IMG/VR virus record: IMGVR_UViG_3300001199_000001 | Span: 5,404-69,403 of that record | DNA length: 64,000 nucleotides | DNA from: a virus | Taxonomy: Duplodnaviria > Heunggongvirae > Uroviricota > Caudoviricetes | Direction: 5' to 3' (one strand) | In this document: positions 1,849 to 50,246 of the stretch, one piece after another | Numbering within the stretch: the first letter of the stretch is position 1 | How the letters are laid out: every line of letters starts with the position of its first letter | The notes under the pieces: generated by a model | Seen by the model: the letters and a program-made list of their open reading frames with translations, nothing else | The model's database searches: none | What the model was told of the DNA's origin: nothing | Translations under genes and position numbers: made by a program

Positions 1849-2125
1849 GTTCACGCCCGACAAAGAATGGGACTATTACGACGGCCCTCTCTTCGGCACC
1901 GCGTTGGACGAGACCGGCGCGGCCTGGGTCTACATCGTCGCCGGTAGTAAAGGGCGTAAATTCCTCGTCGTGCCGTGGATCGAAGGCGTCACCCACGTTC
2001 GGGAACTCATAAAACGCGCCGATAAGGCGTTCCTCTGGGACTTCGAGGGCGACGCTGTCGAGATCGCCGTTCCCGAACCCAGTGATTTCGCCGGAGAAGG
2101 TCTGCTGGTTGGGGATGTAGCCTGA
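1841..2125 (+). CDS. hypothetical protein
   Basis: 94 aa ORF, 8-nt overlap with upstream gene. Confidence 0.5.
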   Translation: MPKFTPDKEWDYYDGPLFGTALDETGAAWVYIVAGSKGRKFLVVPWIEGVTHVRELIKRADKAFLWDFEGDAVEIAVPEPSDFAGEGLLVGDVA

Positions 2126-2637
2126 TGCACATCACCACCTACACCTTCAACACCGTTCGCGGTGAAGAGCCCTACAAATGCACCTGCGGCAGTTGTGGTA
2201 AAACCCTTCGCCGCAGAGCCGTCGTCGAGAACACCATCAATCCCTATAACCGCACTGAGGACGGGACGCCAAAGACCCGTTCGCAAGTCTATTGGGACGC
2301 CCGCGCCGCCGCCAAGGTCGAAGCCGCGAGGCTGGAAGGGACCGAGACAATCTGCCGCGACTGCGAGGAGAAGCCGCGTCGCGATCTCCTCCTCGCCATG
2401 GCGGCGGCCCCTGAAACCGAATTCCCCAAGCCTGAGCGGTACTGGAATTCGGCGATGCACTATCTCGAAGATCGTAAGCAGGTCGAACAGCGTCACACCA
2501 AATGCGAGTGCGGGGCGCCGTGTTGCAGCCGTTGGCGTACATCGGAAGGTTATTTCATCACCGAACTCGGCAAGAAGCGCGCCGCCAAGTTCCAGGCGAA
2601 GCCCCAACTTGTAAGGAACGCTGATGAGTTGGCCTGA
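2125..2637 (+). CDS. Cys-rich zinc-finger-like protein
   Basis: CTCGSCGK...CRDCEE...CECGAPCC motifs; TGATG coupling to upstream gene. Confidence 0.55.
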   Translation: MHITTYTFNTVRGEEPYKCTCGSCGKTLRRRAVVENTINPYNRTEDGTPKTRSQVYWDARAAAKVEAARLEGTETICRDCEEKPRRDLLLAMAAAPETEFPKPERYWNSAMHYLEDRKQVEQRHTKCECGAPCCSRWRTSEGYFITELGKKRAAKFQAKPQLVRNADELA

Positions 2638-2701
2638 AGCTTTTATCGCCGTTGGATTTGGTCTGGTCTTCGCCGTGGCTATCGGAGCCTGCGCGCGATG
2701 A
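2624..2701 (+). CDS. 25-aa hydrophobic micro-protein (MSWPEAF family, copy 1)
   Basis: MSWPEAFIAVGFGLVFAVAIGACAR; ATGA overlap with next copy. Confidence 0.35.
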   Translation: MSWPEAFIAVGFGLVFAVAIGACAR

Positions 2702-2775
2702 GTTGGCTAGAAGTTGTCACCTTTGTCGGCTTTTCCGCCTCCGTCGTTTTTATCATGTGGTGCTCCAGCCTATGA
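2698..2775 (+). CDS. 25-aa hydrophobic micro-protein (copy 2)
   Basis: MSWLEVVTFVGFSASVVFIMWCSSL; ATGA overlaps at both ends. Confidence 0.35.
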   Translation: MSWLEVVTFVGFSASVVFIMWCSSL

Positions 2776-2849
2776 ACTGGCCTGAAGCTTTCGCCGCCGT
2801 AGGTATCGCCGCCTCGTTCGCCTTCATGATCTGGTGTGCATCTCGATGA
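2772..2849 (+). CDS. 25-aa hydrophobic micro-protein (copy 3)
   Basis: MNWPEAFAAVGIAASFAFMIWCASR; ATGA overlaps at both ends. Confidence 0.35.
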   Translation: MNWPEAFAAVGIAASFAFMIWCASR

Positions 2850-3274
2850 CCGAACCCGTCACCCTTGCAGATTGCCCGCCCGGCCTGTTCCGTTTCGGTG
2901 AAGGCCGAAGTGTCTCCCTCGGCTTCAAGACCGAATACGGTATGATCGGCGGCGAGGCAGTCGGACCCGACGTGGTCTTCAAGGTAACCAACTGGCCGGA
3001 CGCCTACGTTCTCGCCAGTGGTGAATTCTTCTGGGGCGGCGTTACGACTCACGAGGAACGCGCCGCGCTGATGGTCACGCCTATCGACCCTGATCACGTC
3101 GCCGATCTCTTCTCACACCGCGACTCATGGGGCGATATGCTGAACACGCTTGTCAGCCGCGTTGACATCGAATACATTCCTGACGACGACAAATCATACT
3201 GGCAACACGAACTGAAGGTTTTCAACCGCGTGTTCACCGCCATTACGGGAAAGGCATATGACCCAGAAAGATGA
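2846..3274 (+). CDS. hypothetical protein
   Basis: ATG 2846 overlaps stop of micro-ORF (ATGA); 142 aa. Confidence 0.55.
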   Translation: MTEPVTLADCPPGLFRFGEGRSVSLGFKTEYGMIGGEAVGPDVVFKVTNWPDAYVLASGEFFWGGVTTHEERAALMVTPIDPDHVADLFSHRDSWGDMLNTLVSRVDIEYIPDDDKSYWQHELKVFNRVFTAITGKAYDPER

Positions 3275-5763: not shown

Positions 5764-5951
5764 TGGGATACCGCCCGCCGACTGCCGAAGACCTCCGCGC
5801 CGATCTGCAAGACATGGGATGTCCTTGGCAGCTTACTGAACTCTTGATCGCCAACGTCATCATCGGTCTCTTCACCGTCGACGAAGTCATCCGACTCGCT
5901 GACAACCTCCGCCTCTCGTCAATTCAGGAACGTAAACTTGTCCAACCGTAA
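5763..5951 (+). CDS. hypothetical protein (GTG start)
   Basis: 62 aa ORF coupled to upstream stop. Confidence 0.4.
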   Translation: MGYRPPTAEDLRADLQDMGCPWQLTELLIANVIIGLFTVDEVIRLADNLRLSSIQERKLVQP

Positions 5952-6288
5952 CCTATATAAATTTAGCTGGGACTGCGGGCGCGCAGGCGAGGTCGACGGC
6001 CTGCTGACCGCTACCCCTGAGCAGATCGCAGGCATCGTCGGCAAGGGCGTCTACTTCGGTGAAATCCTCGGCAAACACTCCGAAGTGTATGGGCTAGCAC
6101 AGGCTGAAGAATTCACTCTCGTCACCGACGATCAAACCTTCATCGCCAAGATGGAGGAACTGTTCGCCCCACCTTTCGAAGACGGCGACGGCCCGAAATG
6201 CCTCTTCGGCTACAGCCCGTTTGACTATCTCGAAGAGATCGAGGACGACGAACCGACCGATGAAACCGACGAAGAGGTCGAAGATTGA
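5938..6288 (+). CDS. hypothetical acidic protein (TTG start in track; true start uncertain)
   Basis: 116 aa ORF with acidic C-terminus EEIEDDEPTDETDEEVED. Confidence 0.4.
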   Translation: MSNRNLYKFSWDCGRAGEVDGLLTATPEQIAGIVGKGVYFGEILGKHSEVYGLAQAEEFTLVTDDQTFIAKMEELFAPPFEDGDGPKCLFGYSPFDYLEEIEDDEPTDETDEEVED

Positions 6289-6371
6289 TCGTTGAAGCCT
6301 TGCGGCTTTTCGCAGCCGCCGCCTTCGTCGTCTTCGGACTGCTCGTACTCGCCACCGCTATCGCCAAATAG
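6285..6371 (+). CDS. possible 28-aa hydrophobic micro-protein (TTG start)
   Basis: MIVEALRLFAAAAFVVFGLLVLATAIAK; AAGAGGTCGAAGA RBS 7 nt upstream. Confidence 0.3.
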   Translation: MIVEALRLFAAAAFVVFGLLVLATAIAK

Positions 6372-6378
6372 ACATGAC

Positions 6379-6555
6379 GTGATCAAACGAACCGGCAACT
6401 TCAGAGTTGGCGACACAGTGCGGCGCCGGGGGTTCACGATCCCCGGCGTCATCACTGACATCACCGATTCGAGTTGGATCAAAATGCGCTGGGCGGTCAA
6501 AGCCAAGGGCCATGCCGAATACCACCACCCGGCTGAGTTGGAGAAGATCGAGTGA
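6379..6555 (+). CDS. hypothetical protein (GTG start; ORF open from 6292)
   Basis: VIKRTGNFRVGDTVRRRGFTIPGVITDI...; upstream part of the ORF is low complexity. Confidence 0.4.
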   Translation: MIKRTGNFRVGDTVRRRGFTIPGVITDITDSSWIKMRWAVKAKGHAEYHHPAELEKIE

Positions 6556-6635
6556 GCGAAGCCATCATTGTCGGTAGTCTCGTCTACATCTCCGGCCTCC
6601 TGACCCTGATCTATTTCAGACTGGGTGAAAAATGA
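6552..6635 (+). CDS. possible 27-aa hydrophobic micro-protein (GTG start)
   Basis: VSEAIIVGSLVYISGLLTLIYFRLGEK; overlapping start/stop at both ends. Confidence 0.3.
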   Translation: MSEAIIVGSLVYISGLLTLIYFRLGEK

Positions 6636-9728: not shown

Positions 9729-10071
9729 GGTCAGACTTGGGTTTAGGATACCGCTCGATTTCTTTGACATCCGAAAACGCTTCTTCGAATAAGAACACGA
9801 GCCTTCGCGCTTCAACATCCGCCGCATCCAACTCTTCCTGCGTGTAAGGCGGCGGCAGAACGATGTCTCCAGTCTCGGTGATGTAGAAGATCAGTCCGTC
9901 GACCGGCGGAACTGGAAACTTGCCGATGTCGATCTCGCCCCACATCTCGTCGCGGTCTTTGTCGTCATCGGTGTAAAACATCCGTACCGTCACCACCCGC
10001 CGCGTCCCCGGCTCGTCGTCCCAGACGTAGCCTTCGATAGGATAGTCTCGCGGATTGAAGGGCTCGGTCAT
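9721..10071 (-). CDS. hypothetical protein
   Basis: 116 aa ORF. Confidence 0.5.
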   Translation of the reverse strand: MTEPFNPRDYPIEGYVWDDEPGTRRVVTVRMFYTDDDKDRDEMWGEIDIGKFPVPPVDGLIFYITETGDIVLPPPYTQEELDAADVEARRLVFLFEEAFSDVKEIERYPKPKSDLN

Positions 10072-10172
10072 CAGATTTCCGGATGCGTGCGGAGGATATT
10101 AATCACGGTTAAGCCGATGCAGCCGAGCGCTGCTAATATCGCTATCGCCAGAAGCAACTTGTGCCGTTTCAT
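10071..10172 (-). CDS. 33-aa membrane micro-protein
   Basis: MKRHKLLLAIAILAALGCIGLTVINILRTHPEI; ATGA overlaps at both ends. Confidence 0.4.
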   Translation of the reverse strand: MKRHKLLLAIAILAALGCIGLTVINILRTHPEI

Positions 10173-10366
10173 CACGCGTCTCTGATGATCTTGTAGTGGG
10201 TCGGCTCTTCGTCGACCTCGACCTTATGATCGTCCTCGGCGTGGCCGATCTGCCAGAAATCACCGTTCCAGTGGCCGACCATCACCAGCCCGGATTCTTC
10301 GTTCAAGAGAAGACGCGTACTGCCGTCTTTGGCTGCGTCGTCGATCATGATGAAATCTTCGGTCAA
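10172..10366 (-). CDS. hypothetical acidic protein
   Basis: 64 aa ORF. Confidence 0.45.
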   Translation of the reverse strand: MTEDFIMIDDAAKDGSTRLLLNEESGLVMVGHWNGDFWQIGHAEDDHKVEVDEEPTHYKIIRDA

Positions 10367-10476
10367 AAGCCGAACTCCCGCAAAATCGTGAACCTGTTAA
10401 CCGCGACTAGCAAATAAACTAGGGCCACAAGACAAGCGCTCACGGAGACCGTCAGAAAAATGTACTCTTTCATCAT
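10363..10476 (-). CDS. 37-aa membrane micro-protein
   Basis: MMKEYIFLTVSVSACLVALVYLLVAVNRFTILREFGF; ATGA overlaps at both ends. Confidence 0.4.
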   Translation of the reverse strand: MMKEYIFLTVSVSACLVALVYLLVAVNRFTILREFGF

Positions 10477-10739
10477 CACCGTCTCCCCGGCAGAACATAA
10501 TGCCCGCCGTCCTTGCTCCGGCGCCAGCGCTGCGGCGGCGTCCACTTCGGATCGCGCTTAGCGAATCCCCCTGATTTCAACTGCCAGTCAAATGACAGGC
10601 GCTTAGCCGTGCGCGGACGCTCCCAGCCGTCACCCTCAACCTCGATCCATGACCCGAACGGCGCGGTCTCGATGGGCCGCCACTCGTTCGCTTGATCATG
10701 GGCGAGATAAAACGGCTCTTTAGGCTGTTCGTCTCTCAT
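10476..10739 (-). CDS. hypothetical protein (Trp/Arg rich)
   Basis: 87 aa ORF. Confidence 0.45.
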   Translation of the reverse strand: MRDEQPKEPFYLAHDQANEWRPIETAPFGSWIEVEGDGWERPRTAKRLSFDWQLKSGGFAKRDPKWTPPQRWRRSKDGGHYVLPGRR

Positions 10740-20149: not shown

Positions 20150-20533
20150 TTATCCCGATGTCAACACATTATCACGTCCCCGCATCAACCGCATGAGCAC
20201 CGCGCGCAGGGCTGATTGCTCGTAAGGCTTCTGAAGGAAGGGCAGGGTCTGATCCGGGACATTCTCCTTGTTATAACCGGTTGACAGCACAAAGGGGATT
20301 CCACGTCCTTGGAGTGCAGTAGCTACCGGGCAGCTATACACTCCGTTCAGGTTGAGGTCGAGAACCGCCATGTCTATCGACTCACTCTCGATGATCGCGA
20401 GAGCCTGCTCGACGCGTGCTGCGGGACCTATGACCTTGCAACCAAGGTCGGCTAACATGTCTTCCAGCACCCAGGAAACCATGAGTTCGTCCTCGACTAC
20501 GAGGACGCGGCGACCCAACAGCGGGCTAGTCAT
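20150..20533 (-). CDS. single-domain response regulator (CheY-like receiver, LovR-like)
   Basis: RVLVVEDELMV...VIGPA...IDMAVLDLNL...PFVLSTGY receiver motifs. Confidence 0.8.
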   Translation of the reverse strand: MTSPLLGRRVLVVEDELMVSWVLEDMLADLGCKVIGPAARVEQALAIIESESIDMAVLDLNLNGVYSCPVATALQGRGIPFVLSTGYNKENVPDQTLPFLQKPYEQSALRAVLMRLMRGRDNVLTSG

Positions 20534-21602
20534 TGGGGCTACGTCCATGACCCTTCGGAAGGGGCATAACGACTTCACACGAAACGCCGGATGGATCGTA
20601 ATCCAATCGGACTTCGCCGTTCAACTCTTGGGCAAGGCCGCGCTCGATAAGGCGAGAACCGAAGCCTTTGCGGGTGGGCTGCACGAGGCGCGGTCCGCCG
20701 CTTTCCTTCCACAGTAGTCGCATCCATTCGCCATCGGCTCGACATTCAACGCCCCAGGACATAGTAACCCGCCCGTCGTCTACCGAGAGTGCGCCATATT
20801 TTGCCGAGTTGGTGGCTAGCTCATGGAAAACCATGGCCAGAGACAAAGCCGCCTTAGGCCGCAAGCGGATATCGGCCTTGGCCTCTAAAGTGAAGCGTTC
20901 CTTTCGCTGATCGTGTAAGCCAAACGGTTCTAGGATAAGGTCGACCACGTTACGCAGCACCACACGGCCCCAACTCGCGCTGCCAAGCAGGCTATGGGTT
21001 TTCGACAACGCGAGGATGCGACCTTCAAACAGTGCAAGAACTTTGCCATCTACGATGCCCCGTAAAGTCTGCCTAGCTATCGCCAGCACGGTTGCGAGCG
21101 TGTTCTGGGTGCGATGGTCTAGTTCATTCAGAAGAAAGCGCAGACGATCTTGCTCCTTCTTGTGGCGCGTAGTGTCCACAAAGGAGGCGAAATGTTGAAC
21201 GACCTCCCCCACTTCGTTCTTGACAGGACTAATGAACACGGTGGCCCACAATACGCTGCCGTCCTTGCGACAATAGCGTATCTCCGTGTCGTGGCCTTCG
21301 CCGTCGTCACGCTCAAAATCGACTTTGATAGCCTCCAACATATCTGGTGCGCCCCCCGGCGCCATCAAGGAGTTAAAGGCCTGCCCAAGTACTTCGCCTC
21401 GACTGTATCCAGTGAGAGCCAAAAAGCTGTCATTAGCGAAAATGAGCGGGTTTCCCGCTGCCTTGGCGTCCGTGAACACCATAGCCATTCGAGTCTGCTC
21501 TGCGGCCACGACAAACGGTCCAAGCTCATCCTTGAACTCTTGAACAACGGCTTCTGCTTTGGCCTGCGCGTTGGCGGGCGTCTTGTGTTGTTCTTCATCC
21601 AT
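20526..21602 (-). CDS. LOV-type PAS domain / HWE (HisKA_2) histidine kinase, LovK-like, lacking the photoactive cysteine
   Basis: GNPLIFANDSFLALTGYSRGEVLGQAFNSLMAP (LOV core with GRNCRFLQG replaced), ...YCRKDGS..W; ELDHRTQNTLATVLAIARQT HWE H-box; C-terminal ATPase. Confidence 0.75.
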   Translation of the reverse strand: MDEEQHKTPANAQAKAEAVVQEFKDELGPFVVAAEQTRMAMVFTDAKAAGNPLIFANDSFLALTGYSRGEVLGQAFNSLMAPGGAPDMLEAIKVDFERDDGEGHDTEIRYCRKDGSVLWATVFISPVKNEVGEVVQHFASFVDTTRHKKEQDRLRFLLNELDHRTQNTLATVLAIARQTLRGIVDGKVLALFEGRILALSKTHSLLGSASWGRVVLRNVVDLILEPFGLHDQRKERFTLEAKADIRLRPKAALSLAMVFHELATNSAKYGALSVDDGRVTMSWGVECRADGEWMRLLWKESGGPRLVQPTRKGFGSRLIERGLAQELNGEVRLDYDPSGVSCEVVMPLPKGHGRSPND

Positions 21603-27450: not shown

Positions 27451-28518
27451 TTACCTGACAGCAGTCAACACATTTGGGTTGGGCGCGGTGCGTCTCTGTG
27501 CGTTCGTGTAAGTGAACGGCGCTGTGACTTTTTGCGGATCGCGCGTGACGGGATAGCCCGTAATTTCGGTCGGCCATTGGGCAACCTTATATACCCGCAT
27601 CGAGCGGCGTGTACGACCCGCGACGAAGTCGTTCCAAGCCGTACTAATCAACCCGAACCAAGTGTCCACGTTGAGTGACGAACCGCGACGCAGATTGAGC
27701 GTAACATTGCGCAGCGCTAGGATCGGACTGCCCTTTTCGAGTTCCGCCCCCGACGAAAGCTTGGCAAGAAATTCCGACCACTTGTCGGCATACTCGCCGG
27801 ATGCTGTCGCCATCCAGCCGACCGCGCTGAGCGCCGACATCGAGACTGGCGGTCTGGCGGTATCGATTTTGGAGACGATCTGCTGGATTTCGGGGTGTTG
27901 GCGTACGAAATCGAGCATTTCGTTCTTACTGATCGTATTGTTCCGTGTAGGCAGCAACTGGTTCCACGTGATGATCAGGCGGACCGCAGCGGCGACCTTG
28001 GTCGCTTGGACGATGCCAGCGCCGCTGAGCGTGTCGGAGGCGCTGCGCTTGGCGCCTTGGTCCAGGGTGGAGAAAGTGTCTTCTTCGAGACCGCGAACGA
28101 CCATCATGCGAACCGGGGTCTTGGCGAGGAGGACGGCGGTGAGGCGGTGTTGACCGTTCAGGAGGCGACCGTTGCTAGCAAATTGAATGGGCTCGCCATT
28201 CATCTTCCACATGCCCATGCTCATTTGCCGGGCGAGAGATTCGACATGTTTGCGTCGAATAGGGCGGTTGCCCCAATTGGTGGTCGACAGATACTGATCG
28301 GCGACCTCCGGAGTGATAATTTCGTCCGACCACGAAAGGTGGGATGCGACGTGAACTGATTTGGACTTCGCAGCGGCCATGCCGTTACCTCCTGAGTTGA
28401 TGGTTTCTAACTCATAGTCGCCTTCGTTTCCCGTTGTCAACTCATTAGTGACAGCCTCGATGAACTGAGATTGGGGAGGCTTGGTCCGCCTCGAAAAGAT
28501 CAAATCCATTAGACTCAT
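27451..28518 (-). CDS. ParB-like nuclease domain (ParBc/DUF262-like) protein
   Basis: NGRLLNGQHRLTAV motif resembles DGQ(Q/H)R of ParB/DUF262. Confidence 0.5.
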   Translation of the reverse strand: MSLMDLIFSRRTKPPQSQFIEAVTNELTTGNEGDYELETINSGGNGMAAAKSKSVHVASHLSWSDEIITPEVADQYLSTTNWGNRPIRRKHVESLARQMSMGMWKMNGEPIQFASNGRLLNGQHRLTAVLLAKTPVRMMVVRGLEEDTFSTLDQGAKRSASDTLSGAGIVQATKVAAAVRLIITWNQLLPTRNNTISKNEMLDFVRQHPEIQQIVSKIDTARPPVSMSALSAVGWMATASGEYADKWSEFLAKLSSGAELEKGSPILALRNVTLNLRRGSSLNVDTWFGLISTAWNDFVAGRTRRSMRVYKVAQWPTEITGYPVTRDPQKVTAPFTYTNAQRRTAPNPNVLTAVR

Positions 28519-29630
28519 ACAACCACCCCTCCGTTGGCTGGGTTTTCCCGCACGACGCCGGTCCGTTCGTTGGGCGGGAAACAGAGAGAATAATGCAGAC
28601 CGGTGAAACGATATTCGAGGCGGGCGATGCCGTTGACCTCATTGGGTAGGCCCCTGGTCAAAAGACGCGTTCCGAAGGATGTTTTTTTAGGCCGTTCGAC
28701 ATACGGTCCGCCGCTCTCGTCCCAGCCCAGGCAAATCTCATTTTCACTGACGTGGACGCTGAGATTGACTGCGCCGTTGTATTCCGCGCTCCACGCCCCG
28801 TGCTTGGCGGCGTTAGTGGCCAATTCATGTAAGGCCATGCCAATCGACACCGCGTAATTCGGGTGAAGTTCGATATCCTTGCCGACCACCGTATAAACCT
28901 TGCCGTAAGGTGCGAGCAGGCGGTCGACCAACTCCCGGAAAAACACATGCGACCAGTGATGCTCGACTAGCAGATTATGGGTTTGCGAGAGCGCCATGAG
29001 ACGCTTCTCGAACGTCATCGCGAACTGCTCCTTCGACTCCGCCGCGCGCAAGGTCTGCTGGGCGATGGACTGCACCGACGCGAGTGTGTTCTTGACGCGG
29101 TGGTTCAGTTCGTCGATCAGCAGTTGCTGCCTACGATCATGCTCCTTCAGCGCAATCATCTCGTCCGATTTCTGCTGTAGCGCTAGGTAGGCGGCTTCCC
29201 GGTCACGCAACGCTTCGTCCTTCGCTCGAATCTGGTTTTCGAGCATTGAGGGAGAGGGTATCGCAAGCAGTTGCGGCGTCAAGGGCATCAACATTAATGC
29301 CGTAATCACTGACACTGAGGCGGTGACAGCCTTGAGCAAGGCCTCCACTCCGTAGTGTGGGTTCCACAGCGTCCAGATGGAAAAGAAGTGGGTCGTGCCG
29401 CAGAGCAGGATGAACGACACGAACAGCCAGCCCATCCACCCAAAGCTCAAACCCCTCCGCTTCAATAAGAAATAACCGATGGCGAACGGAATCGAATAAT
29501 ACGCCAGCCCGATAAGCACGTCGGAAGCGACATGGACAATGAGGATGTCAGGGCGCCATAATAAGCAGAGCCCGTGGGGATTTAGAAACTCGGAATCGAA
29601 GAAATATCGAATCCGTTCAATGATATTCAT
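28515..29630 (-). CDS. membrane-anchored HWE (HisKA_2) sensor histidine kinase
   Basis: N-terminal multi-TM domain; ELNHRVKNTLASVQSIAQQT H-box; C-terminal ATPase. Confidence 0.75.
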   Translation of the reverse strand: MNIIERIRYFFDSEFLNPHGLCLLWRPDILIVHVASDVLIGLAYYSIPFAIGYFLLKRRGLSFGWMGWLFVSFILLCGTTHFFSIWTLWNPHYGVEALLKAVTASVSVITALMLMPLTPQLLAIPSPSMLENQIRAKDEALRDREAAYLALQQKSDEMIALKEHDRRQQLLIDELNHRVKNTLASVQSIAQQTLRAAESKEQFAMTFEKRLMALSQTHNLLVEHHWSHVFFRELVDRLLAPYGKVYTVVGKDIELHPNYAVSIGMALHELATNAAKHGAWSAEYNGAVNLSVHVSENEICLGWDESGGPYVERPKKTSFGTRLLTRGLPNEVNGIARLEYRFTGLHYSLCFPPNERTGVVRENPANGGVVV

Positions 29631-31211: not shown

Positions 31212-32683
31212 TTATGCGTTCGCCCCGTTTCCGTTCGGCTTGCGCTTGGCCGGGACGACGGTCTCATTCGGGTGGAGCGTACCCACCGCCTTAGTGACGA
31301 TGGCCTGCCCCTCAGGTGTCTGTGCAAGGCCGGTTAGCATGGAGCCGATAGCCTGACCGCCCTTCGACGAGAACAGATCAGTGATCTTGCCGATGCCGGT
31401 CTGCACGTCGCCGCCGTTGACGATTACCTTCACGTCCGCCGCCTTGATGGCTTCGGCTTGCGCCACCCCGACGACTTGGTTGGCCTTCACCTGCTCGACA
31501 CTGACCAGATAGGTTTGATAGCCGGTGTTGCCGCCGATCTCACGGGCCAATTCCATCTGTGGCGCCACTTCAGCCAGTCCCTTGGCTTTCACGGCTTCAG
31601 CTTCGGCGAGGCCTCGCGCCTGAATGCCTTGAGCTTCCTTGATGGATTCTTCGAGGTTGCCTTCGGCGATCAAAATGGTCTGGTTTTTCTCGCCTTCGGC
31701 TTCGATTCGACGGCGTTCACGAACCGCTTCGGCGTCCACAACGGCGACATTCTTGTCCTGCTCGGCCTTAACCTCAGCCACCGCCTTGTCTTGCTGCGCC
31801 TTGATTTCAGCTACCTGCCGGTTGATCTCGGCGGCCCGTGTCATCTCGACCTGCTTGACCGCGTAATCTTTCTCGGCGGTGGTGCGGGATTCTTCGAGAA
31901 CCTGTTGCTCAGACCGCTGCTTCGCGATGCCGACGGCCTGCTCTTGCTGCGCGGTACGCTCGCCGACCTGTTGTGCGGCTTCCTGTCCAGCCAGATCGAT
32001 CTGACGGCGAGCTTCGATTTCACGCTCTTCGGCTTCGCGATGGTTTTCCGCAACAGCGACGCGGCTTTCCTTCTCGATGCGGGATTTCTCTTTGGCCATG
32101 ATGTTCTCAATGACCTTCGAGCCGTTTGAGTCACGGATGTCCATGAACTCGATGGTCTTGACCGTCTGAACGCCCCATTCCTTCAACTGTCCGTCGACTT
32201 CGGAAGTGAAACGCTCACCGAGCGACGAGCGGTCATGCATGATCGTCTCAAGCTGAGACTGTCCAAGCACGGTCCGGACGGCACCTTGCAGCACGGCGTG
32301 AAGCTGTTCAGTCAGTTCGGCGAAGTTGGCGACGCGGTGCGCGGCTACGTCCGAATCAGCGATCCGGAAGAAGGCCATGACATCGACGCGAAACGGCAGG
32401 CGTCCCTGGTCATAAGCTTCGTAATCCTTCAAGCCGACGTTGAAGACGCTCTCAGGAAGCTCGACCTGCGTGACGCCGAAGAACGGAACGAAACCGGGGA
32501 TTTCATAATAGACGTTCCCGGCTGTCCGGCCCTTGCCGTAGGAAGTCGTTGCTCGGCGTGATTGAACGATGTGCACCATATTGGTTGGTACGACCCGGCG
32601 CAGCACCATCATGATGATGGTTACGAGGACAACGAGGCCAAGCGCCACGCCTCCCCCGATCATTGCAATAATACTACCCATGA
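31212..32683 (-). CDS. SPFH/band-7 (flotillin-like, YqiK-type) protein with long coiled coil
   Basis: N-terminal TM, SPFH core, EA-rich coiled coil; GGAG RBS before ATG 32683. Confidence 0.7.
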
Positions 32684-32697
32684 CTCTGATGCTCCGG

Positions 32698-33252
32698 TTA
32701 TTTTCTGAGGTTTTTGGTGTCGACCTTGACCAAGGCGTCAAGGTGCTTATCGACAGAGGCGACGGCCTCATCACGAAGCTGCTCTTTCATCGCGCCGATG
32801 ATGTTGACGGCGTTCTGCTTGACGAGGTCGATAAAGGCCTCGCTGACGAACTTGCCGACCATCCATTCGGCGCGCGTCTTAGCGCCTTGTTTGTCGTAGT
32901 AGCCGCTGCTGGAAGAGAGTTCCTTGCCGCTCTTGTCGACAAGCTTAGACCAGAAGTCCTTCGATTTTTCGTTCAAGGTATCGCGGATGCTGATCGGCTG
33001 ACCGGCAGCTTGGCCATAAATATCGACAGGCTGGATCGGCTGCGTGAGCATAGACTCAAGCCGGTCATTGAGGAGGTCGTCGATCTTCGATGTGATCTTC
33101 GCGCCTATCGCCTCATCGACGCGTTTATCAATCAAACGACCAACGCGGTCGCCAACGTAGCCGGACGATGCGGCATCATCAGCTAGCTTCCGAGCGGCGC
33201 GCTCAAGGATTTGCTCGCGGATTTCTTCTTGGGAAAGGCCAAGGTCGATCAT
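32698..33252 (-). CDS. hypothetical protein
   Basis: 184 aa ORF. Confidence 0.55.
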   Translation of the reverse strand: MIDLGLSQEEIREQILERAARKLADDAASSGYVGDRVGRLIDKRVDEAIGAKITSKIDDLLNDRLESMLTQPIQPVDIYGQAAGQPISIRDTLNEKSKDFWSKLVDKSGKELSSSSGYYDKQGAKTRAEWMVGKFVSEAFIDLVKQNAVNIIGAMKEQLRDEAVASVDKHLDALVKVDTKNLRK

Positions 33253-48446: not shown

Positions 48447-50246
48447 ATGTCCGGACTCGCTCCGAACTCCTCGAATTATCAAAGAGTTTCACGCGCCGTC
48501 GATCAGGCCGTCCATCTGCTTGTCCACCCCGAATATGAGTACTGGCTTCCGGAATGGCGGAAGATCAGGGACGCTCTGCGTGGCCAAAAGGAGATCAAGC
48601 AGAAGTCCGAGAGCTACCTGAAGCGTATGAAGGGGATGGACGACGAGGACTACGAAATCTATCTCGACCGCGCCTTGTTCTACAACATGACCGCGCAGAC
48701 CCTGAACGGCATGATCGGTCAGGTTTTCCGGCGCGAGCCCATCGTCCGCAACCTGCCGGACAAATTTAAGAACGCTGTCCGTAAGTTCGCTAAAGACGGA
48801 ACCAGCCATATCGGGCTGGCCAAGACCAGCATGGGCGAACAGCTATCGCTGGCTCGTTTTGGCATTCTCGTCGATGCGGCGGCTTCCGTACAATTGGAAA
48901 GCCCGTCTTCGTACGCCGTCGGCTACCAGACAGAAGATATCCTTGATTGGACCGTTGAAGAGGTCGACGGATTTTATCGCCCGACACGCGTCCTGCTGCG
49001 GGAATATGTCCGCGACGACTCGTTGTCGGCGAGCAATGCGCCGAGCGATACGGTCTCCCGCCGTGGAGCCGGTCCCCGCGTCAATGTGTCTAAAGCACGG
49101 GCTGGCATGCAGCCGAAACGCTCGTACACGAACTTCCAATATAAGGTGATCTACCGGGAACTCCTGCTGATCCCGCATCCTCGTCACCCGCAATTCGAAC
49201 GTGTGTACGTCCAGCGTCTTTATGACACAGACCCGCAGTCAGCCCCATCGTCCGAAGTCGTTCCTGTCATTCGCGGCGTGCCGCTGCCGTTCATCCCCTT
49301 CCAGTTTTTCGGCTCGCGCACGAACACCGCTGATATTGAGCCGCCGCCGCTAAACGACATTGTCGATATTAACCTGTCGCACTACCGGACCTACGCTGAG
49401 CTTGAGTACGGTCGTACCTTCACGGCCTTGCCAGTCTATTATGCGCCGGGCGGTAACGACGAAGGGGCGTCCGCGTACCATATCGGCCCCAATATGGTTT
49501 GGGAGGTTCCGCCGGACGGGTCCGAGCCGGGCATCCTTGAATATAAAGGCGAAGGCCTGAAGGCGCTTGAAAAAGCGCTGGAACAAAAAGAACAGCAGAT
49601 CGCCTCCATCGGCGGTCGTCTGATGCCCGGTGCGTCGCGGTCGATCTCTGAGTCGAACAACCAGACTGCGCTACGTGAATCAAATGAACAGTCCTTGCTT
49701 CTCAACGCCATCCAGGCCTGTGAAGAGGGCTTTGCTGAAGTCATTCGCTGGTGGCTGATGTTCCGTGACGTGCCGCTGATCGAGACGCAGGGCCTCCGTT
49801 ACGAGTTCAACACCCAGTTCCTGTCTACGCCGATTGGCGCCCGCGAACTGCGCGCCATGCAGCTTATGTACAAAGAAGGCATCATCACTGACCAAATCTA
49901 CTACGAGTTCCTTAAGAAGGCCGAGGTCGTGCCGTCATCGTGGACCTTCGAAGAATACCAAAAGGCCCGCAAGGACCCGAACAGCTTCGTCAACAACCCC
50001 GACGCCCAAGCCCGTCAACGCGGTTATTCCGACCGCAAGCAGGAACTTGGCGTGGAGTCGACCGAGTTCGAGCAAGACATCCTCGACCGTGAGATCGAGA
50101 TCGAAGAAGAAAAGCTTGAAATTGCCGCCAAGGTTGGTTCGACCACCGTCGCAGCTTCCCGCAAGCTGGGCGATCCCGAGCAAGCTGAACCGGCGAAGGC
50201 TGATAAACTTTCTGCCAAGAAAGCCGCAGCAAAACCTAGCAAGTAG
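48447..50246 (+). CDS. putative portal protein
   Basis: 599 aa, first gene of late plus-strand block, followed by scaffold and capsid; no Walker A. Confidence 0.5.
   Translation: MSGLAPNSSNYQRVSRAVDQAVHLLVHPEYEYWLPEWRKIRDALRGQKEIKQKSESYLKRMKGMDDEDYEIYLDRALFYNMTAQTLNGMIGQVFRREPIVRNLPDKFKNAVRKFAKDGTSHIGLAKTSMGEQLSLARFGILVDAAASVQLESPSSYAVGYQTEDILDWTVEEVDGFYRPTRVLLREYVRDDSLSASNAPSDTVSRRGAGPRVNVSKARAGMQPKRSYTNFQYKVIYRELLLIPHPRHPQFERVYVQRLYDTDPQSAPSSEVVPVIRGVPLPFIPFQFFGSRTNTADIEPPPLNDIVDINLSHYRTYAELEYGRTFTALPVYYAPGGNDEGASAYHIGPNMVWEVPPDGSEPGILEYKGEGLKALEKALEQKEQQIASIGGRLMPGASRSISESNNQTALRESNEQSLLLNAIQACEEGFAEVIRWWLMFRDVPLIETQGLRYEFNTQFLSTPIGARELRAMQLMYKEGIITDQIYYEFLKKAEVVPSSWTFEEYQKARKDPNSFVNNPDAQARQRGYSDRKQELGVESTEFEQDILDREIEIEEEKLEIAAKVGSTTVAASRKLGDPEQAEPAKADKLSAKKAAAKPSK

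Follow-up and report, generated by a model that had tools for sequence, protein, structure and literature searches.

Three ATGA-linked 25-codon micro-ORFs in a large tailed phage and an unannotated phage family of predicted single-helix membrane micropeptides

Three coupled micro-ORFs at one phage locus

The stretch analyzed here, 64,000 nucleotides (nt) of a tailed phage (Caudoviricetes; positions 5,404 to 69,403 of IMG/VR record IMGVR_UViG_3300001199_000001; hereafter the window), carries a chain of three micro open reading frames (ORFs), ORF1 to ORF3, whose predicted products p1 to p3 are hydrophobic peptides of 25 amino acids (aa) (Table 1). An earlier sequence-only reading had described three ORFs of exactly 78 nt, each beginning within the stop codon of the one before by an ATGA overlap in a new frame, and this is what the DNA holds at the ORF1/ORF2 and ORF2/ORF3 junctions. 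The same coupling had been proposed for both flanking genes. It held downstream, where the ATGA that closes ORF3 opens the 142-aa gene, again with a change of frame; upstream, the TGA of the 170-aa gene (2635-2637) falls within the CCTGAA of ORF1 codons 4 and 5, giving a 14-nt overlap and no ATGA junction, and ORF1 has a Shine-Dalgarno (SD) sequence of its own. ORF1 also starts with ATGA, as do the other two, but the TGA within it ends nothing except a spurious 40-codon ORF, and this first ATGA is unused as a junction.

All three peptides share M1, W3, E5, V10-G11, and a cysteine near the C-terminal end, and the mean hydropathy of residues 6 to 24 ranges from 1.84 to 2.42, the highest value being that of p1. 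Of the common motif that had been put forward from the sequence, the C-terminal portion, F..W.C, is limited to ORF2 and ORF3. The N termini are MSWPEAF in p1 and MNWPEAF in p3, and arginine is the last residue of both; p2 begins MSWLEVV, in which only M1, S2, W3, and E5 are retained, departs from the family described below by P4L, A6V, and F7V, and ends in SSL with no basic residue.

Neither the chain nor the similarity among its members is readily produced by chance. Chains of three ATGA-linked ORFs of 18 to 50 codons occur once in the window, compared with 0.005 expected per mononucleotide-shuffled strand. Full-length ungapped BLOSUM62 similarity was matched by 0 of 20,000 composition-preserving shuffles for p1-p3 and for p2-p3 (p1-p2, P = 0.0014), and residues 8 to 25 alone gave P = 0.002 for p1-p3 and again 0 of 20,000 for p2-p3; judged by this shuffle test, ORF2 is a clear diverged paralog of ORF3. 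Among the three paralogs the proportion of synonymous differences (0.63 to 0.73) is near saturation, and that of nonsynonymous differences (0.31 to 0.48) is unsaturated. Two other readings of the same DNA were rejected: a 65-aa ORF with a TTG start (2652-2849), because homologs match its last 25 residues only, and antisense ORFs at 2679-2756 and 2753-3097, which were without support.

Table 1. Coordinates of the micro-ORFs, their flanking genes, and other features of the window
Feature	Position	Strand	Description
Upstream gene	2125-2637	+	170 aa, Cys-rich, phrog_12618/35236, function unknown; stop inside ORF1 codons 4-5
SD sequence of ORF1	2613-2618	+	AAGGAA, 5 nt before ORF1 ATG; read from sequence
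ORF1 (p1)	2624-2701	+	78 nt, 25 aa, MSWPEAFIAVGFGLVFAVAIGACAR; canonical family N terminus; read from sequence
SD-like site before ORF2	2684-2687		GGAG, 10 nt before ORF2 start
ORF2 (p2)	2698-2775	+	78 nt, 25 aa, MSWLEVVTFVGFSASVVFIMWCSSL; diverged paralog
SD-like site before ORF3	2759-2762		GGTG, 9 nt before ORF3 start
ORF3 (p3)	2772-2849	+	78 nt, 25 aa, MNWPEAFAAVGIAASFAFMIWCASR; best family match of the three
SD-like site before downstream gene	2833-2836		GGTG within the Trp-Cys codons of ORF3, 9 nt before the 142-aa gene start
Downstream gene	2846-3274	+	142 aa, phrog_12239, function unknown; start (ATG 2846) in the ATGA closing ORF3
Micro-ORF	6285-6371	+	28 aa, hydrophobic, MIVEALRLFAAAAFVVFGLLVLATAIAK; TTG start
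Micro-ORF	6552-6635	+	27 aa, hydrophobic, MSEAIIVGSLVYISGLLTLIYFRLGEK; GTG start
Micro-ORF	10071-10175	-	34 aa, hydrophobic, intergenic, MMKRHKLLLAIAILAALGCIGLTVINILRTHPEI
Micro-ORF	10363-10479	-	38 aa, hydrophobic, intergenic, MMMKEYIFLTVSVSACLVALVYLLVAVNRFTILREFGF
HWE-type histidine kinase	20526-21602	-	
HWE-type histidine kinase	28515-29630	-	
SPFH/Band 7 protein	31212-32774	-	520 aa
Portal protein	48447-50246	+	DUF4055

The MSWPEAF family of phage micropeptides

A search of other phages for MSWPEAF peptides, which the sequence-only reading had suggested, uncovered a homologous, phage-specific family with at least 139 viral or metagenomic loci; the gene statistics given below refer to 82 distinct genes (59 peptides). 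The exact first 17 nt of ORF1 occur in 16 IMG/VR contigs, 15 of which have an open ORF of 24 to 31 aa that combines MSWPEA with a hydrophobic helix and a basic tail. The degenerate pattern M-[S/T/..]-W-P-E-A-F had at least 120 matches in viral contigs, and family-like ORFs were present in 109 of the 117 complete hits among the matches listed (42 of 50 by distinct peptide), whereas bacteria, represented by one genome per species, gave 5 family-like ORFs out of 119 hits to that pattern, nearly all of the others being chance hits in long or nonhydrophobic ORFs. A stricter pattern, MxWPEAFxAVG, retrieved full-length family ORFs (22 to 45 aa) in 16 of 16 metagenomic hits and in 74 of 75 translated hits in viral contigs, the remaining one being cut to 19 aa. 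The helix positions were left free in the searches that retrieved most members, and position 11 was fixed only by the AVG-anchored pattern.

A hidden Markov model (HMM) of the family built without the window sequences recovered p3 (E = 1.3e-10) and p1 (E = 1.1e-6) from 4,789 small ORFs, and a model of the transmembrane (TM) part only (residues 8 to 25) had p3 as its top match (E = 0.015). The nearest homologs are two 25-aa forms on contigs of 57 to 59% GC, MSWPEAFAAVGGLCAWALILWVLFR at locus L327 and MSWPEAFAFVGMFAFFASVAWMVLR at locus L101. The former is ATGA-coupled at both ends and follows a GapR/DUF2312-like gene (recognized by eye, with no profile search); megablast of the latter locus against phages gave no match. 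By tblastn, a p3-like 25-mer returned nothing, and a 29-mer of the type found at locus L006 returned only noise.

Family peptides have a modal length of 27 aa (range, 22 to 45) and a common architecture: M-[S/T/N]-W-P-E-A-[F/I/V], one hydrophobic helix of about 18 residues, and a short basic tail. Mean charge is -1.0 at the N-terminal end and +0.95 at the C-terminal end, with K or R among the last six residues in 86% of members. In 28 nonenteric peptides, small residues occupy position 11 in 57%, position 15 in 79%, and position 17 in 82%, all on one helix face. The phages and contigs concerned span 36 to 66% GC, and across them the synonymous codons of P4, E5, A6, and F7 vary. Within the enteric clade, the ratio of nonsynonymous to synonymous substitution (dN/dS) is 0.34 for codons 8 to 27, which the searches left unconstrained, and 0.08 for codons 2 to 7. 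Equal rates of the two kinds of change had been named as the result that would speak against real genes; codon comparison instead shows purifying selection at the protein level on the family, and with the narrow length range and strong ribosome-binding sites (AGGAGG or GGAGG, at a distance like that of ORF1) it upholds the earlier argument that the peptides are under selection. Also supported is the earlier proposal of single-pass membrane peptides, in that each sequence is predicted to hold one hydrophobic segment flanked by charges that follow the positive-inside rule.

Translational coupling to the preceding gene is frequent, and coupling to the following gene occurs in several members, including those at L327 and L280. 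The start codon lies in ATGA in 81 of 82 genes, and in 55 of them its TGA closes an ORF of 40 codons or more that lies upstream; 52 of the 82 have no downstream ORF of 50 or more codons within 60 nt. ATGA is present in 26 genes even where no upstream ORF ends there, a retention that suggests that the ATGA context as such, or A at position +4, is under selection. The second codon nearly always starts with A (ACN, AGY, or AAY), serine being encoded by AGY and not TCN. The genes are located in operons of early or accessory type, in temperate as well as virulent phages, and their neighbors are unrelated; an all-against-all BLAST of the neighbors revealed no gene that recurs across unrelated loci, so that the micro-ORF behaves as a self-contained module. 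It is present as a single copy at 137 of 139 loci and as a tandem pair at two, which makes the triplet of the window the largest array seen. One pair (L011, 4717-4898; MGWPEC.../MSWPEAIS...) lies just upstream of a serine recombinase, and the other (L280, 3137-3294, minus strand; MTWPEATMW.../MTWPEAIFG...) is ATGA-linked.

An enterobacterial clade (MTWPEAFTTVGIAMAVALVVYSICRWG and variants) is present in 93 GenBank phage records, among them phage 933W, with a related variant in VT1-Sakai; the virulent Vequintavirinae phage Av-05 has a member as well, and one 84-nt variant is found in 1,349 of 5,426 complete Escherichia coli genomes, a single genome holding as many as five copies. Among the small genes of the early-left operon of lambdoid prophages, the ORF comes last, after DUF551 or Ea22-like genes and before xis/int or hok; in 933W (L140, 1501-1578) it lies about 200 to 300 nt upstream of hokW/sokW, and in a prophage of E. 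coli 83972 (L284, 1501-1584) it lies at a similar distance upstream of hokD. The ORF is unannotated in all eight records inspected (the RefSeq records of E. coli E2865 and 83972, 933W, ArgO145, Stx2 II, 666R9, VT1-Sakai, and Av-05), where the annotated feature under the match is the upstream gene, overlapped by ATGA. No meaningful match was obtained in the curated libraries PHROGs, Pfam, NCBIfam, PADLOC, and Rfam or among PDB sequences; a collection of 5.8 billion proteins, queried with a 75-aa concatenate of the three peptides, held nothing similar, and the peptide strings do not occur in 8 million full texts. Protein databases are empty of the family because ORFs shorter than about 30 codons are passed over by gene callers. 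Large catalogues of small ORFs (smORFs), such as that of Fremin et al. 2022, may contain it unnamed. The phage single-helix membrane micropeptide is a known kind; the present family is, as far as we have checked, undescribed, and so are its breadth and tandem amplification.

A putative early membrane effector and its alternatives

Taken together, these findings make it very probable that p1, p2, and p3 are real, translated members of the family, and likely that they are single-pass peptides of the inner membrane. As a whole, we think it rather probable that the locus is a tandem triplication within an unannotated phage family of early, translationally coupled, N-out/C-in inner-membrane micropeptides that pack on a host membrane target. 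ORF1 would be initiated at its own SD sequence while ribosomes complete the upstream gene, and ORF2, ORF3, and the 142-aa gene would be translated by termination-reinitiation at the ATGA junctions, probably assisted by the GGAG or GGTG located 9 to 10 nt before each. Since a 25-mer is shorter than the ribosome tunnel, it would be complete before it emerged, and insertion in the host inner membrane would be posttranslational; by the positive-inside rule, the acidic MSWPE end would lie on the periplasmic side of the membrane, with the basic end in the cytoplasm. The small-residue face (positions 11, 15, 17, and 22) might then pack on the TM helices of a host inner-membrane protein, or on itself, with the periplasmic SWPE cap contributing to the action on that protein. 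A host membrane function would thereby be altered early in infection, conceivably through a block of the machinery for transport, DNA entry, pili, or division, and three diverged copies could widen or split the target specificity. That the peptides act by binding to a host membrane protein, and not by forming a pore or depolarizing the membrane, is suggested by analogy with peptides discussed below, and we hold it to be plausible, at slightly less than even chances.

Several observations weigh against this interpretation. The external HMM misses p2 among the 4,789 small ORFs, and that peptide also lacks P4, A6, and the basic tail. The SD-like sequences of ORF2 and ORF3 are weak ones only, which means that their translation depends on reinitiation. 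The family was retrieved by its N-terminal motif, whose conservation is overstated as a result; the GC content of third codon positions (GC3) by frame carries no information in segments of about 70 nt; and no close relative of the phage was found in which conservation of the triplet itself could be followed. Nor did the supplements of an enterohemorrhagic E. coli Sakai ribosome-profiling study and an Enterobacteriaceae smORF study contain a match. Finally, the proposed step of binding to a host protein draws on analogy and on the small-residue stripe.

The peptides might instead be toxin-like or pore forming, oligomerizing in the inner membrane as Hok, TisB, Ibs, Ldr, or a minimal holin does and depolarizing or permeabilizing it, so that host functions are shut off, lysis is timed, or the cell is killed, three copies supplying a higher dose. 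Their size, hydrophobicity, and charged tail do resemble those of type I toxins, small-xxx-small motifs also favor self-association, family members lie close upstream of hokW and hokD, and toxicity is common among the distal early-left genes of lambdoid phages. Yet neither an antisense partner nor a site resembling a promoter or terminator was found on either strand in or beside the chain, Rfam gave no match, and coupling to strongly translated early genes implies that expression is not restrained as it is for type I toxins; no holin or toxin family was matched, and it is not obvious what the conserved periplasmic SWPEAF motif would do in a pore. We therefore regard a toxin as unlikely. The earlier suggestion of a holin or antiholin is not supported: 25 codons is far below holin size, no holin appears among the Pfam, PHROG, and NCBIfam hits at E ≤ 10, and the ORFs lie outside any lysis cassette, among small genes of early or replication type, with PHROGs of unknown function and an HNH endonuclease as neighbors in the window and xis/int beside the lambdoid homolog. 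A role as membrane-potential modulators, which had also been raised, is possible.

Two further explanations deny the peptides a function of their own. In one, the chain is a cis-acting translational relay in which termination-reinitiation carries ribosomes over from the 170-aa gene into the 142-aa gene and sets the level or timing of the latter, the peptides being by-products. Such a relay would account for the ATGA junctions with their SD-like sequences, for a 142-aa gene whose own ribosome-binding site is at most the weak GGTG inside ORF3, and for the ATGA start of nearly every family member; it would not account for amino acids that are conserved across phages of 36 to 66% GC while synonymous codons vary (dN/dS of about 0.3), or for a hydrophobic helix and positive-inside charges, which a relay does not need. 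Moreover, the 52 genes with no downstream ORF nearby have nothing to relay to, and the downstream genes that do exist are unrelated to each other, which leaves the relay highly improbable as an explanation. A regulatory leader peptide or attenuator ORF was rejected on these last two observations together with the lack of a terminator-like site after the chain. In the other, the ORFs are untranslated chance frames in a noncoding spacer or a degenerate DNA repeat, as might be supposed from the empty stretch left by gene callers, the want of protein-database entries, and a GC3 pattern by frame that is not decisive. The shuffle tests, the independent HMM matches (E near 1e-10 and 1e-6), and the hundreds of homologous ORFs that keep frame and length make this extremely unlikely.

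Genomic surroundings and comparison with known systems

Near the chain, the window consists of small genes of unknown function, mostly coupled by ATGA or by a single nucleotide, plus the HNH endonuclease; no tRNA genes were found in the window. The only DNA similarity to cultured phages consists of short stretches of 66 to 74% identity to Caulobacter and Brevundimonas Dolichocephalovirinae, and the source is a large alphaproteobacterial-type phage. Searches with both flanking proteins among viral contigs and metagenomes, and a 25-kb megablast against phages, returned no close relative. Homologs of the upstream gene in Brevundimonas phages Kikimora and Bajun are not followed by micro-ORFs, and none lie beside gp305 of CcrRogue, the homolog of the downstream gene. 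The C terminus of the 170-aa protein is about 9 aa longer than those of the Kikimora and Bajun homologs, which suggests, on the strength of this comparison, that insertion of the cassette remodeled the end of the gene; the Pro-Glu codons CCT-GAA of the family (2633-2638 in the window) hold the out-of-frame TGA that serves as the stop of the upstream gene in p1. In Bajun, the syntenic spot lies in a replication module, and holin and spanin genes lie beside the tail genes, far away. No MSWPEAF member was present in the 100 kb examined of this 207-kb phage, whose sole micro-ORF there is unrelated: a 24-aa hydrophobic ORF, MKALDLLFKTVGFIAACAFLFIFW (L361, 21134-21208, minus strand), unannotated between BAJUN_00400 and 00410, with a start that overlaps the 00410 stop and no WPE cap. 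Its weak match to the family HMM (E = 0.02 to 0.05) comes from a TVGFIAACAF helix. Consensus scans of positions 2100 to 3000 in the window, which are weak evidence, found no promoter-like or terminator-like sites on either strand, and Rfam gave no match. In the public assembly (Logan SRR2043728), the gene caller chose the 142-aa start at 2846 and left the micro-ORF stretch empty.

The window phage seems rich in micro membrane peptides. The 27-aa MSEAIIVGSLVYISGLLTLIYFRLGEK has a GTG start that overlaps the prior stop (GTGA), with GGAG 8 nt upstream, and its own stop overlaps the ATG of the next gene (ATGA); it is loosely family-like (MS..EA, a helix, and a basic end), lacks the WPE motif, and is not detected by the family HMM. 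The TTG start of MIVEALRLFAAAAFVVFGLLVLATAIAK overlaps the stop of the gene at 5938-6288, and this ORF occupies the gap ahead of the probable GTG start of the next gene at 6379. The minus-strand ORFs MMKRHKLLLAIAILAALGCIGLTVINILRTHPEI, which has a signal peptide- or lipobox-like AALGC, and MMMKEYIFLTVSVSACLVALVYLLVAVNRFTILREFGF are of the same unannotated type, each located between coupled genes. Elsewhere, the two HWE-type histidine kinases are unusual sensory cargo for a phage, one having an ETR1-like (ethylene-receptor) N-terminal membrane domain (Pfam E = 5.5e-36) and the other a PAS domain; the SPFH/Band 7 and portal genes indicate that the window extends into a structural module.

A near analogy is offered by PfsE (PA0721) of the Pseudomonas Pf filamentous phages, an inner-membrane peptide of about 30 aa that binds PilC and blocks superinfection (PMC8764522). 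Points of resemblance to the MSWPEAF peptides are that it is phage encoded, forms a single inner-membrane helix, and has an aromatic motif that is short and conserved. It differs in that its YxWGW motif is absent from p1 to p3 and from the family profile, with no sequence similarity; in its reported N-in orientation, the family being predicted N-out; and in being confined to Pf (Inovirus) prophages, whereas the MSWPEAF contexts are all tailed phages, temperate and virulent, of many Proteobacteria. SidA of Caulobacter crescentus, a 29-aa SOS-induced division inhibitor, resides in the inner membrane and binds FtsW, FtsI, and FtsN (PMC4211646). It belongs to the same size class and comes from a host clade like that of the relatives of the window phage, but it is chromosomal and LexA regulated, and nothing ties the MSWPEAF family to division.

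Type I toxins (Hok/Gef, TisB, Ibs, Ldr, and ShoB) are hydrophobic single-helix peptides of 19 to 50 aa with charged tails, often prophage borne and sometimes in tandem. Like them, p1 to p3 are small hydrophobic membrane peptides; unlike the monocistronic, antisense-repressed toxins, they are coupled in an operon with no antisense element found and no family match. Holins and antiholins are also small phage membrane proteins, but they typically have at least 60 aa and are late genes in lysis cassettes, none of which is true of p1 to p3. Regulators of the class of AcrZ, MgtS, MgrB, KdpF, and CydX, with at most 50 aa and one helix, act through helix packing on a larger membrane protein, whose activity they modulate. 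Each of these proteins is chromosomally encoded and belongs with a particular partner gene or regulon, in contrast to the MSWPEAF family, which has no conserved neighbor and no sequence similarity to them; bacterial small membrane-protein regulators are reviewed in works cited in PMC11323111.

We further speculate, as a rather doubtful extension, that the family is an early membrane effector common to proteobacterial phages, in which the invariant, periplasm-facing SWPE(A/F) cap and the small-residue face would dock on a single inner-membrane machine that is conserved universally, such as that of DNA entry, of membrane-protein insertion, or of septal synthesis. If true, a universal target would explain why the same 25- to 29-aa module occurs in phages of E. 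coli, in those of alphaproteobacteria, and on contigs of 36 to 66% GC; the triplet would represent an arms-race diversification toward several target variants; and an unannotated gene carried by one in four complete E. coli genomes, and also by prophages with Shiga toxin (Stx) genes, would have a defined host target.

Small phage peptides of a single helix, PfsE among them, are able to reprogram the membrane machines of the host and yet escape gene callers and protein databases, and the MSWPEAF family is a sharply sequence-defined, testable example that extends from the Stx phages of E. coli to an alphaproteobacterial-type phage. Because homologs exist in tractable systems (933W, VT1-Sakai, Av-05, and common E. 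coli prophages), its function and target are directly determinable. The ATGA-linked triplet itself is a natural system in which to study termination-reinitiation through successive 25-codon cistrons and the divergence of micropeptide paralogs.

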